NCBI GenBank assembly: GCA_029856045.1 | Contig: JAHQWG010000046.1 | Coordinates: 53,477 to 117,476 of the forward strand | Direction of reading: 5' to 3' | DNA: 64,000 nt | Origin: Promethearchaeia archaeon | GTDB lineage: Archaea; Asgardarchaeota; Lokiarchaeia; Sigyniarchaeales; SOKP01 | In this document: in pieces, positions 54,209 to 64,000 of the stretch | How positions within the stretch are numbered: position 1 is the first letter of the stretch | Layout: the number at the start of each line of letters is the position of its first letter | Made by a program: the position numbers and the translations under genes | The notes under the pieces: generated by a model | Seen by the model: only the letters and a program-made list of their open reading frames with translations | Told to the model about the DNA's origin: nothing | Databases searched by the model: none

Positions 54209-55324
54209 TTATTTAGATTCCTGTTTTATTTTTTTCTTGGATTCCTTCCTTGCCATAAATGTATCTTCTAAAACATTCAAATATTCAATTAGGACTTGAT
54301 TTGATTTTGACTTTGTCTTATATTCTTTCTTAATTGTATTAATTATATATTCTGGGAAGAATTGTTGCACAAAGAAATCTGACAAAAGAGTATAATACTC
54401 GTTTCCACTCTCATCTTGAAACACTTGAATCATCCTAGAGGACCAGAGTTTCTTAAGAACATAATCAACGTCATCTACTCCTTTTTTCTTGAGCTTTTCA
54501 AGATCATTTCTAGTAACTATTGTTTGCCGTAATAACTTTATTGTCTCATACACTGGTGGATCAATTAAGAGATCGATCAGAGTTAAATTATCATTTTCAC
54601 TTAGTTTATATTCTTGAAAGAATTTCTTGCACTCTGTAACATAATTATTTGCCAGATTTGAAGGAAGACCATGACTACTAGGAGCCTTGATGAGTTTTAC
54701 TGGAGGAATCCTTGAAAATAAAAGATCATGTGTCAAAAATACCAACTCAGAAGGCATACCCTTAACAGATGCCTCTTTTATGATTTCATTTTTAATTAAA
54801 CTTGCAATAATCGCTTCTATATCAACGAATCCATGCTGATACTTGTCTTTTAACCAGACTAATAACTCCGATTTTGAGATTACACCTTCATCACGTAATC
54901 GATTTATTATTATTCTTTTAATCTCATCTTGATAAATAATTGCTAGTTTTTGCTCTAAATTTAATTTTGGATATACTGATAAGCGCTGAAAAATAGATGG
55001 AATTAAATTAATAAGATTTTCATTTTCAATATTGGCCAAAATTTGTCTCGAAACATCTGCTAATCCAGATTCATATAAATCTGGTTCATCCTCTAAACTC
55101 AATAGTAAAATGATGTAACAACCAGTTTCTTGTCCTGTATAGTAACTTGCAACGTTTAATGAGCCCACCATTAGACTTACCATTCCGGGTTCTCCAGTGT
55201 ATTCATGAGTACTATAAACTTGCATTAAAGTTTTATCTCCAATTACAACTTCCTCTGGATATTTTGCAATAATTTGTGTACCGATACGCTCATCCCATTT
55301 CATTATAACTAATCCGACTGGCAT
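54209..55324 (-). CDS. Longin/uDENN-like plus tandem winged-helix protein (copy 1)
   Basis: N-terminal GLVIMKWDERIGTQIIAKYP resembles the first hairpin of NPRL2/C9orf72/AVL9-type longin domains; two wHTH-like segments; TAATG overlap with the upstream gene. Confidence 0.65.
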   Translation of the reverse strand: MPVGLVIMKWDERIGTQIIAKYPEEVVIGDKTLMQVYSTHEYTGEPGMVSLMVGSLNVASYYTGQETGCYIILLLSLEDEPDLYESGLADVSRQILANIENENLINLIPSIFQRLSVYPKLNLEQKLAIIYQDEIKRIIINRLRDEGVISKSELLVWLKDKYQHGFVDIEAIIASLIKNEIIKEASVKGMPSELVFLTHDLLFSRIPPVKLIKAPSSHGLPSNLANNYVTECKKFFQEYKLSENDNLTLIDLLIDPPVYETIKLLRQTIVTRNDLEKLKKKGVDDVDYVLKKLWSSRMIQVFQDESGNEYYTLLSDFFVQQFFPEYIINTIKKEYKTKSKSNQVLIEYLNVLEDTFMARKESKKKIKQESK

Positions 55325-61370: not shown

Positions 61371-64000
61371 TACTCTTCACTACCTCCTTCTTGATTTTCA
61401 TCATATTCTTTCTCTTTTTCTGATGGTTCTTTTTCAGGTTCAGGATATTCCCATTCAGACTTCGGTGGTTCTTCCTCAATTTCAGGTTCTGGTCGTTTTT
61501 CCGCAATTTCAGGTTCAAGATATTCTATTTCAGGCTCCGGTGGTTCTTCCGCAATTTCTGGTTCAGGATATTCCCTTTCAGGCTCAGGTGGTTCTTCCTC
61601 AATTTCTGGTTCAGGATATTCCCTTTCAGGCTCAGGTGGTTCTTCCTCAATTTCTGGTTCAGGATATTCTATTTCAGGCTCAGGTGGTTCTTCCTCAATT
61701 TCTGGTTCAGGATATTCCCTTTCAGGCTCCGGTGGTTCTTCCGCAATTTCTGGTTCAGGATATTCTATTTCAGGCTCAGGTGGTTCTTCCTCAATTTCAG
61801 GTTCTATGGATTCTTTTTTAATTTCACCTAATTGTTTACCTTTTATTCCAAGAAGGTCTTCTAATGAGATCCCCAATCTATCCCATCTATCACCTAAAGA
61901 ATTCAACATATACTCCATTTTAGTTTCCGTAGCTAGAGATTCTGATATTGTTTTCTTTGATTTAATTGCTTTTTTCACTTTATTCAACTTTTTAGTAAAT
62001 TCAGGAATTCTTCTATATTTAATATATTTAGTTGTTCCATAAATTCCTACTACTACAGCAATAGTAGTTCCAATTAGGAGCCAATATAAGTACGGAATTC
62101 CAAGAAATGGGTCTACAGGTAAGCCAATATCAAGAGATAATATAACCTCTTGAGTTGTATAATTCGTTTTAACCATTTTAATTTGTACGGTATATGTTTG
62201 ATCTGGTACTACTTCTGCTAACATCGTGTTATTAAAAGTTATTGCATAAACTCCCGAAGTACTTGATTCATGGAATAAATAAGATTGTCCTTCAAAGGTT
62301 ACTTCAATTGTAGCCCCACTAAGAGATGTACTATGTACAATATCAATTAAACTTAGAGTAATTGATACATCTCTATTTTGGGGCGTAAAGAATACGGTAC
62401 CCCGAATGTTTTCGCTTAAAGTATAGTTAATTGGCTTTGTATCTACAAAGAAATCAATTGAGGCAATGCCTTCAGAATAATCCTCTTTAACAGCAGTAAT
62501 TGATAAAGTAAAATTACCTAATAAATCTGCTTCTAATGTGTATTTATATTCTCCCGGATTTTGAACCGCACTAATCGGAGTAAATAAACCCGTTTTAATT
62601 AAATCATTAGTTAGAGTATTATTCCTTATTTCACATGTAATTGTTGCACTATTAATTAATTGTCCATCTAAATCACTGATAGAATCAGAAACATTGTAAA
62701 TTGCAATAATTTCACTGCTTTGATCTAAATAAAAATCTATTATCTTAACAGGAACTATAGACACTTTGTCAGAAATTGGAGTTAAAACAGTATAAATCGG
62801 TCTCACCCATACATACGGATTATATGTATAAGTACTATAGAATTCTTTTTGTAATGTAGGAGAAACATAATAAGCCGTTGATTCAGATACATTAACGTAA
62901 GAGGTGTTAAACCAAATTAAGTAATAACCTGCCCCGTATAATGGATCTAATTCTAAATCAGAATAGTCCCATTTAGTTCCCCTATCTGCTACTCCCAATT
63001 CTATGTAAGGTTGGAATACCTGACCAACTTTAACCGAAATATTAAGTGTGTTTATTGCTGCTCCCGATAATAATCGATTTGTCCTTGGATCATCAGTACA
63101 ATAATAATTTATTATAAATGACGCGTTATTATACCATGGATAAAACGATGGTGGTTTTATTAAATCAACCGTAGTCGCCCAACTGTCCAATATTCTCAAA
63201 GTTATTGTTTCAATTTGATCTTGATAATATGGATTATGACAAACAAATGATAATTCATAATCCCCATCTGAAAATTTCGAAGCATTGATTGTAAGATTAT
63301 ATTCTCCAGTTCCAAGATCGTCAAGTTTAAAAGAATCAGGATAGAATTCATTTTCAACAATCGTAATATTAAGCAATGATGCCGATATATCGCTATTTGC
63401 CCCAATATAAGCGCCCGTAGGATCAATTGAATAATTTACAATGATAGATGTTATTTCTCCTCTTGCTATTTTTACAAAAGTTGAGGTAACTTCGTAATCC
63501 ACAGCATCTTGAACCCACCAACTAATTGATGTCGGAACCTGAAACACCGAAATTGAAAGAGTCTTTGTCGCAAGATTTATATTTGTTTTATTAGCACGAA
63601 CATAAATTTGGTATGTCCCTACATCTAATACAGTGGTGTTGAAAAGTAAAGAGTAATTACCATTTCCATTATCAAACATTGTACCATTATAGATTGTTCC
63701 AAGTATTGTCCAATTAACCGTTGCACCGGACATTCCTAGAGCCTCTGGTAGAAGCGTTGTATAATTAATAAAAAGTGTAATGTTTTGGTTCCAGAGCACA
63801 TCTAAATCCGTCCCCGCATCTATTTCTAATATAGAACTCGTGTGGTTTTTAATATTAAAATCAATATATCTTACTGCGTCTTGATAACTTGCCTTTGAGA
63901 GATTCAGTTTTATTGAATAACTTCCCGGTGTATAATGGCAACTATATAATAAAAACGAATAATTCCCGCCTCCTTCATCGTTTAGGTTATTGTTAGTATC
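61370..64000 (-). CDS. Large single-pass surface glycoprotein with acidic repeat tail, 5'-truncated by window edge
   Basis: Frame stays open from 63799 to 64000; beta-rich repeats (DNGNGNYSL, DLGTGEYNL); TM YLYWLLIGTTIAVVVGIY; juxtamembrane domain homologous to that of 55324-59772. Confidence 0.85.
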   Translation of the reverse strand, partial: DTNNNLNDEGGGNYSFLLYSCHYTPGSYSIKLNLSKASYQDAVRYIDFNIKNHTSSILEIDAGTDLDVLWNQNITLFINYTTLLPEALGMSGATVNWTILGTIYNGTMFDNGNGNYSLLFNTTVLDVGTYQIYVRANKTNINLATKTLSISVFQVPTSISWWVQDAVDYEVTSTFVKIARGEITSIIVNYSIDPTGAYIGANSDISASLLNITIVENEFYPDSFKLDDLGTGEYNLTINASKFSDGDYELSFVCHNPYYQDQIETITLRILDSWATTVDLIKPPSFYPWYNNASFIINYYCTDDPRTNRLLSGAAINTLNISVKVGQVFQPYIELGVADRGTKWDYSDLELDPLYGAGYYLIWFNTSYVNVSESTAYYVSPTLQKEFYSTYTYNPYVWVRPIYTVLTPISDKVSIVPVKIIDFYLDQSSEIIAIYNVSDSISDLDGQLINSATITCEIRNNTLTNDLIKTGLFTPISAVQNPGEYKYTLEADLLGNFTLSITAVKEDYSEGIASIDFFVDTKPINYTLSENIRGTVFFTPQNRDVSITLSLIDIVHSTSLSGATIEVTFEGQSYLFHESSTSGVYAITFNNTMLAEVVPDQTYTVQIKMVKTNYTTQEVILSLDIGLPVDPFLGIPYLYWLLIGTTIAVVVGIYGTTKYIKYRRIPEFTKKLNKVKKAIKSKKTISESLATETKMEYMLNSLGDRWDRLGISLEDLLGIKGKQLGEIKKESIEPEIEEEPPEPEIEYPEPEIAEEPPEPEREYPEPEIEEEPPEPEIEYPEPEIEEEPPEPEREYPEPEIEEEPPEPEREYPEPEIAEEPPEPEIEYLEPEIAEKRPEPEIEEEPPKSEWEYPEPEKEPSEKEKEYDENQEGGSEE
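61400..61810 (-). repeat. Coding tandem repeat, 48-nt (16-aa) unit EIEEEPPEPEREYPEP
   Basis: About 6-7 near-identical 48-nt units. Confidence 0.92.

Follow-up and report, generated by a model that had tools for sequence, protein, structure and literature searches.

A putative receptor-adaptor-small-GTPase module with swappable ectodomains and an NPRL-like longin adaptor in Asgard archaea

Asgard genomes encode dozens of longins and small GTPases (PMC10933270), and NPRL2-like longin/helix-turn-helix (HTH) proteins, longin-GTPases and adhesin-like surface proteins are each already on record for these archaea. Liu et al. (10.1101/2020.10.19.343400) describe 'NPRL2-like longin domain' asCOGs with this domain pair in Lokiarchaeia, and an 'HTH domain; NPRL2-like longin' orthogroup is listed in the supplement of PMC9834061. 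Asgard longin-GTPases (LG) of the Rag/Arf-like type were reported by Tran et al. in 2024 (PMC10933270), who found that strain MK-D1 does not, as a rule, carry its GTPase genes in operons with longin genes, and that partners are hard to assign. Large transmembrane-anchored proteins with a signal peptide and repeat domains are described as adhesin-like in Promethearchaeaceae (10.1101/2025.07.22.663070). Here we analysed a window of 64,000 nucleotides (nt) at the end of contig C46 (JAHQWG010000046.1), from a genome of 3.34 Mb whose nearest relatives are labelled Promethearchaeota (Lokiarchaeia). Between positions 54,209 and 64,000 it holds two tandem units, each consisting of a gene for a large surface protein (R1 or R2, the receptors) followed by a gene for a soluble adaptor (A or B; Table 1). 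The reading that we favour, with moderate confidence, is that these genes belong to a receptor-adaptor-small-GTPase module with coupled synthesis, docking of the receptor tail, a longin scaffold and swappable ectodomains.

A sequence-only reading of this window had proposed that the two-gene unit occurs twice with a 1-nt stop/start overlap, and both junctions indeed read TAATG. Its count of exactly 12 differences between adaptors A and B in the first 121 residues is correct as well (overall identity is 79%), as is its impression that the ectodomains align poorly, since the membrane-proximal parts shared by R1 and R2 are 29% identical by BLASTP and 24% in a global alignment; the tails are 46% identical. 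Among 73 adaptor hits in 54 Loki-type loci, the adaptor gene lies directly after a receptor gene with the same tail in 53, is fused to it in 11 and lacks a receptor in 2, with the remaining 7 at contig edges. Unfused adaptors that could be assessed thus stand behind a receptor in 53 of 55 cases, which is far above chance, and the pair adjoins or is fused across Asgard genomes, as would be expected of a real unit. In the fused proteins the linker is 77-79 amino acids (aa) long, the length of the free tail, and the sampled fused forms make up a single clade (97/97). One genome (G207:C9, 430-465 kb; L071, L072) carries five tandem genes for receptor-adaptor fusions of ~2660 aa beside a P-loop GTPase gene.

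The adaptor B model, built with 107 homologues, was of high quality, with a predicted local distance difference test (pLDDT) score of 92.8 and a predicted template modelling score (pTM) of 0.85. Its N-terminal part consists of strands 2-11 and 15-22, helix 30-43, strands 47-53, 56-62 and 69-76, and helices 81-97 and 104-120 (pLDDT >88), which is the five-stranded sheet in beta-beta-alpha-beta-beta-beta-alpha-alpha order of the longin superfamily, with Z scores of 10-12.6 to many longins. The predicted longin fold was therefore found, and NPRL2/Npr2 were its best matches: human NPRL2 ranked first (Z 12.6, root-mean-square deviation (rmsd) 2.6, 119 residues aligned) and a SEA-complex chain (Npr2/Npr3, SEACIT) second (Z 11.6), with a Lokiarchaeal longin, Vamp7 and Lst4 close behind, so that the margin of NPRL2 over other longins is only ~1-1.5 Z. 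Foldseek also ranked GATOR1 chains first and listed ESCRT-II tandem winged helices. Profile matches and the model place two winged helices after the longin. The sequence-only reading had likened the first hairpin to that of NPRL2, C9orf72 and AVL9, of which the NPRL2 likeness stands and the DENN likeness falls: residues 122-357 form winged helices and further helices without the alpha/beta core of cDENN/dDENN modules, and DENN chains align over residues 1-121 only.

Over the whole chain, similarity to NPRL2 is low. Full-length Foldseek alignments gave an rmsd of 16-21 and a template modelling (TM) score of ~0.2, and whole-chain TM scores to NPRL2 models were 0.31-0.38. Pfam returned no significant match for A or B, the NPR2/NPR3 families were not among the 25 families listed for the 107 members, and an atlas feature search returned only unnamed Asgard clusters. 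Longins that act in GTPase-activating proteins (GAPs) are marked by a GP motif before strand 2 and an arginine finger (PMC12290439). In the adaptors, a Trp-Asp pair and a Gly in the first hairpin are conserved at 92/83/94%, and the Pro of the GP motif is present in only 9/107 and 1/73 sequences. An Arg in the loop between strands 4 and 5, which we take to be the position of the arginine finger, occurs in 15 of the 107, and no longin Arg is conserved above 64%. Since these GAP hallmarks are not conserved, the adaptor, although built like NPRL2/3, is NPRL-like and not a GATOR1 member. It is probably already catalogued under one of the NPRL2-like longin asCOG labels. Across the family, net charge is negative in the two recognition helices and in the second wing, with averages of -1.3 to -2.7 for the recognition helices and -12 to -14 for the whole protein. 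The family thus lacks the basic recognition helix and wing of ArsR/MarR-type regulators, which argues against DNA binding.

Prediction of a complex between the 73-aa R2 tail and adaptor B gave a score of 0.80, compared to 0.00 for the best of three controls; the mark used for this score is reached by 58 of 80 solved pairs and 2 of 110 mismatched pairs. The runs agreed in at least 95% of contacts, and the tail reached a pLDDT of at least 78 in the complex and 32 when it was folded alone. The longin lies outside the predicted interface, which falls in the C-terminal groove (Table 1). The interaction suggested by the sequence-only reading is therefore predicted well above controls, and the model supports tail-adaptor binding. 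A search for a solved structural relative of the receptor tail found none, and a single-sequence fold of a natural receptor-adaptor fusion was uninformative (pLDDT only 36). Interface identity tracks tail identity beyond that of the rest of the protein, a weak signal (partial r 0.35; 2.4% of matched random sets were as high). Between A and B, 109 of 121 longin residues (90%) and 19 of 35 interface residues (54%) are identical, with uniform synonymous divergence. A conserved longin and a divergent interface would fit adaptors that each recognise their own tail and act on a common output, though surface residues are in general more variable. We reject recent gene conversion between the two adaptors, because 40-54% of same-residue codons differ in every region.

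A small GTPase recurs beside these genes. It is a longin-fused Arf/Rag-like protein (Arf PF00025, E 1e-18) with intact G1, G3 and G4 motifs. In 13 Loki-type loci its gene separates the two units, and it also follows fusions. Outside Lokiarchaeia it is the direct neighbour of the adaptor in more than 10 loci, and such adjacency is seen in Jord/Freya, Baldr, Hel and Thor genomes. In L145, L146, L148, L126 and L150 the genes for adaptor, receptor and GTPase lie side by side and point the same way. The Thorarchaeota-type order is adaptor, receptor, longin-GTPase, once expanded to adaptor-receptor-adaptor-receptor-GTPase, whereas L126 has GTPase-adaptor-receptor and L150 fusion-fusion-GTPase. The sequence-only reading had called the adaptor GTPase-regulator-like; a link to a GTPase has genomic support, and the GAP motifs are not conserved. 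From gene order and the role of longin dimers as GTPase platforms (PMC10933270) we infer a physical or catalytic coupling of adaptor and GTPase. In many Lokiarchaeia a Gtr1/RagA-like GTPase gene (L002:921-1853), a second candidate client, lies ~3.7 kb upstream of the array, and in Harpocratesius a 136-aa longin-like gene follows the adaptor gene.

The ectodomains fall into old types that are 45-75% identical between genomes, with DUF2341, LamG, Ig/prealbumin-like and FG-GAP domains in homologues. Comparing R2 with the receptor of locus L002 gave identities of 23% for the ectodomain, 78% for the tail and 90% for the adaptor; with L119b these values were 64%, 67% and 73%. Ectodomain type thus does not follow tail and adaptor, and the ectodomains are swapped on a conserved tail-adaptor unit. 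On contig C15 of the same genome lie the upstream flank of the locus, which is conserved, and a third surface-protein gene (L121:2-3997, 1332+ aa) that is nearly identical to R2 over the membrane-proximal ~230 aa and then diverges. C15 and C46 are probably adjacent, and the C15 gene is either a third unit or a strain allele, both of which imply recombination among ectodomain genes. The Harpocratesius receptor (L063:8187-15248, - strand; 2353 aa) combines FG-GAP repeats, which also occur in bacteria, with MG2/filamin-like Ig domains in an integrin-alpha-like layout.

Judged from their primary structure, R1 and R2 are type-I single-pass surface glycoproteins, with an N-terminal signal (seen in R1, as R2 is cut at its 5' end), a sequon-rich ectodomain, one C-terminal transmembrane helix and a sequon-free tail; glycosylation itself is presumed. 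R1 has hydrophobic segments at aa 14 and aa 1252 and 49 N-glycosylation sequons, none of them in the tail, and sequon density is 3.8-3.9 per 100 aa outside compared to zero in the tail. Pfam gave no significant match for R1 or R2, and in the atlas feature search the lead of DUF2341 for the R1 head stayed below 0.9. The sequence-only reading had counted as conserved intracellular parts the juxtamembrane tail with its IP motif, an acidic repeat tail and an identical terminus, and only the first of these survives as a conserved element. The acidic Pro/Glu/Tyr repeats are absent in most homologues, whose tails end ~75 aa past the IP motif. The last 14 residues of R1 and R2 are indeed identical; the 'GG' at this terminus encodes the adaptor's Shine-Dalgarno site, which is present at 57 of 61 junctions. 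The Tyr-Pro-Glu repeats of R1 and R2 are independent expansions with 14-aa and 16-aa units, each with 8 Tyr beyond the conserved tail, and other lineages carry unrelated acidic insertions at the same position. Mini-receptors of 143-170 aa (L019:9570-10001; L136:1647-2159) keep the transmembrane helix and tail with almost no ectodomain, and are possibly decoys or deletion products.

The adaptor family is present in 218 of 301 Asgard genomes, including genomes labelled Thor, Odin, Hel, Jord/Freya, Baldr and Atabey, and was mostly not found in the sampled Heimdallarchaeaceae (1/28), the Borrarchaeum family (0/5) and three further families. Harpocratesius and Odinarchaeum are examples of cultured or closed genomes with a member. 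A tail profile gave strong matches in each of the 27 Loki-type relatives sampled; in other classes its matches were weak (E 1e-4 to 1e-6) and mostly to proteins of 1200-2400 aa. It found nothing in families without the adaptor, but also nothing in several families with it, and thus has limited sensitivity. An exact search for the junction in metagenome contigs gave no match. In Lokiarchaeia the locus comprises one to three units and occupies a fixed site, with a methyltransferase gene on one side and a RuBisCO-like gene on the other. A ~137-aa winged HTH (wHTH)-like gene directly follows the adaptor gene in Odinarchaeum and a relative (L065:6620-7030, L103:2614-3030); in Odinarchaeum it is followed by the gene for a surface protein of 1552 aa whose tail is similar.

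In the mechanism that we favour, receptor and adaptor are encoded by genes with an overlapping stop/start and an internal Shine-Dalgarno site, or by one fused chain, which would match their amounts. As the model and the fusions suggest, the ~60-aa basic juxtamembrane tail would then fold into the groove in the C-terminal half of the adaptor, tethering the latter under the membrane and leaving the longin and both winged helices free. To judge by gene order and longin biology, the conserved acidic longin of the adaptor may pair with that of the dedicated longin-Arf/Rag-like GTPase, which the adaptor would localise or regulate as a scaffold rather than as a GAP with an arginine finger. Comparison of genomes shows that different ectodomain types are exchanged on one tail-adaptor unit in 1-5 tandem copies, so that varied surface contacts could feed a single cytoplasmic output. 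Most likely this output would be the placing, clustering or turnover of adhesin-like proteins, with contact coupled to membrane remodelling. Several findings weigh against this mechanism. The complex score rests on alignments that we made ourselves, and public fused homologues may have taught the model the pairing. Mutual information between the chains showed no enrichment at the predicted interface, with an effective number of sequences (Neff) of 23. Groove residues are also conserved in paralogues without an adjacent receptor, so that they may serve the fold itself or the binding of other helices; nor does their conservation tell paralogues linked to a receptor from those linked to a GTPase. 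Tail and adaptor trees are congruent, which linkage alone would produce, and the two longin-GTPase orthologues of this genome (C25:98023-99096, C47:11240-13105) are unlinked to the array.

A more ambitious account, which we regard as possible but doubtful, is of an ancient signalling system that spans the Asgard archaea and works from the outside in. Exchangeable adhesin ectodomains would, via tail and NPRL-like adaptor, switch the longin-Arf/Rag-like GTPase and so control cell contact or membrane remodelling, and the adaptor would be a relative of NPRL2/3 in archaea. The adaptor could also have a structural or biogenesis role only, either as a dedicated chaperone or inner anchor shielding the basic tail, or by building a coat beneath the membrane or a connection to the cytoskeleton for major envelope proteins, with the GTPase loosely linked and no signal. 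The strict 1:1 coupling and fusion, the poor folding of the isolated tail, the unlinked GTPase in this genome, the ESCRT-II matches, and the irregular surface proteins of Asgard cells without an ordered S-layer (PMC9834061) would all suit such a role. We nevertheless consider it unlikely, as the same longin-GTPase family lies beside the adaptor in several classes and in three-gene clusters, and the longin is the most conserved part of the adaptor while lying outside the predicted tail interface.

We give little credence to an archaeal GATOR1 forerunner, in which the adaptor would be a genuine GAP of the NPRL2/3 type, or a co-subunit of one, that acts on the longin-GTPase while the receptor serves as the sensor upstream. 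GATOR1/SEACIT chains are the top structural matches, the conserved hairpin residues recall the WD of C9orf72 and the GP motif (PMC12290439), and tandem adaptor paralogues could heterodimerise. Against these stand the rarity of the GP-motif Pro and the loop Arg, the low whole-chain TM scores, the presence of other longins within ~1.5 Z, the single unit in many genomes, and the near absence of the family from the sampled Heimdallarchaeaceae. Least probable of all is a membrane-sequestered transcription factor, in which the receptor would hold a winged-helix regulator and release it on a signal, a logic like that of anti-sigma factors or ToxR. Weak matches of the two winged helices to ArsR/TrmB/MarR types and the public label 'ArsR family regulator' of some members invite this idea, whereas the acidic recognition helices, second wing and overall charge, the proteolysis that covalent fusion to a transmembrane protein would require, and the constant GTPase neighbour all speak against it.

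The features of the locus are listed in Table 1. A promoter scan of the bacterial sigma-70 type, which does not suit archaea, was uninformative.

Table 1. Coordinates, within the window, of the two receptor-adaptor units and their parts
Feature	Position	Strand	Basis
Adaptor A, 371 aa: longin (1-121), two winged-helix domains, C-terminal tail-binding groove	54209..55324	-	Open reading frame (ORF); 79% identical to modelled adaptor B
Surface protein R1, 1482 aa: N-terminal signal/anchor, DUF2341-like head, Ig/prealbumin-like beta-sandwich stalk, one transmembrane helix, cytoplasmic tail	55324..59772	-	ORF; family domains from homologues
R1 transmembrane helix, aa ~1252-1272	55957..56019	-	Hydropathy and alignment
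R1 conserved basic juxtamembrane tail (IP..VKK ... W..LG.S motif), predicted adaptor-binding element	55738..55956	-	Homology to R2 tail
R1 acidic Pro/Glu/Tyr repeat, 42-nt unit, lineage-specific insertion	55360..55742	-	
Shine-Dalgarno-like site of adaptor A within R1 coding end; TAATG overlap at 55324	55336..55341	-	
Intergenic region of 491 nt between the two units, AT-rich near R1	59773..60263	.	
Adaptor B, 368 aa: longin 1-121, wHTH ~133-200, wHTH ~243-322, predicted tail-binding groove of residues 200-241 and 318-357	60264..61370	-	Model
Surface protein R2, 876 aa visible, 5' end beyond end of contig C46: beta-sandwich stalk, one transmembrane helix, tail	61370..64000	-	
R2 transmembrane helix, aa ~633-657	62030..62104	-	
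R2 conserved 73-aa tail (used in complex prediction)	61811..62029	-	
R2 acidic repeat, 48-nt unit, 6.8 copies, lineage-specific	61479..61804	-	
Shine-Dalgarno GGAGGT of adaptor B, read as Gly-Gly at R2 end; TAATG overlap at 61370	61382..61387	-	
Segment in common with third ectodomain gene at start of contig C15; 96-100% identity over first ~700 nt, 64-73% further 5'	62242..63640	-	

Several other genes accompany the locus. A RuBisCO large-subunit family gene (window 51666-52988) is its constant downstream neighbour, and a weakly TGT-like gene (53081-54151; E 9e-4) is inserted between this gene and adaptor A only in this genus-level group. Two conserved genes travel with the locus in many Lokiarchaeia, one for a Zn-ribbon protein with, by eye only, apparent longin/roadblock-like segments (49547-50716), and one for a protein with, again by eye only, a gelsolin-like-looking N-terminus and a Pro-rich linker (47395-48228). 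Elsewhere in the same genome (C36:54980-57838; L122:981-3839) a divergent pair is found, in which a gene for a 576-aa transmembrane protein abuts that of an adaptor paralogue of 375 aa with 27% identity; a TrmB-like gene comes next.

The module names a matched trio as a candidate answer to the questions which regulator serves which Asgard GTPase and how both gain access to a membrane (PMC10933270), and it bears on the identity of the irregular Asgard surface proteins (PMC9834061). Swappable ectodomains point to varying partner or surface recognition in syntrophic cells. Asgard archaea are close relatives of eukaryotes, and the module offers a testable surface-to-cytoplasm signalling or anchoring system; if it signals, receptor-tail-to-small-GTPase wiring existed in archaea.

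Our literature search, which left subscription papers largely outside its reach, found no description of the coupled module, in line with the sequence-only reading, which knew of none. The adaptor resembles NPRL2/NPRL3 (yeast Npr2/Npr3; GATOR1/SEACIT) in its N-terminal longin, the C-terminal lobe that follows and its putative association with small GTPases, and differs in the missing GAP hallmarks, a whole-chain TM score <0.4 and a modelled binding to the tail of a transmembrane protein. The pairs integrin-talin and plexin-small GTPase and cargo binding by AP complexes likewise combine a variable ectodomain, one transmembrane helix, a short conserved tail, a cytoplasmic adaptor and a small GTPase. 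With these eukaryotic systems the module shares a logic rather than a demonstrated homology. In AP complexes longin subunits help to bind cargo motifs, whereas the longin of the module lies away from the predicted tail contact. The DEPDC5/TORC1 context of GATOR1 has no known Asgard counterpart (10.1101/2020.10.19.343400); the passages considered there describe fusions of NPRL2-like longins with two-component domains and a DENN-Roadblock-Rab operon, and no surface-protein coupling. For the Promethearchaeaceae adhesin-like proteins, the passages considered in 10.1101/2025.07.22.663070 describe no conserved cytoplasmic tail or partner, both of which are features of the receptors presented here. 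Compared to the longin-GTPases of PMC10933270, whose architecture the neighbouring GTPase shares, a candidate GTPase partner and a membrane anchor emerge here from other classes.

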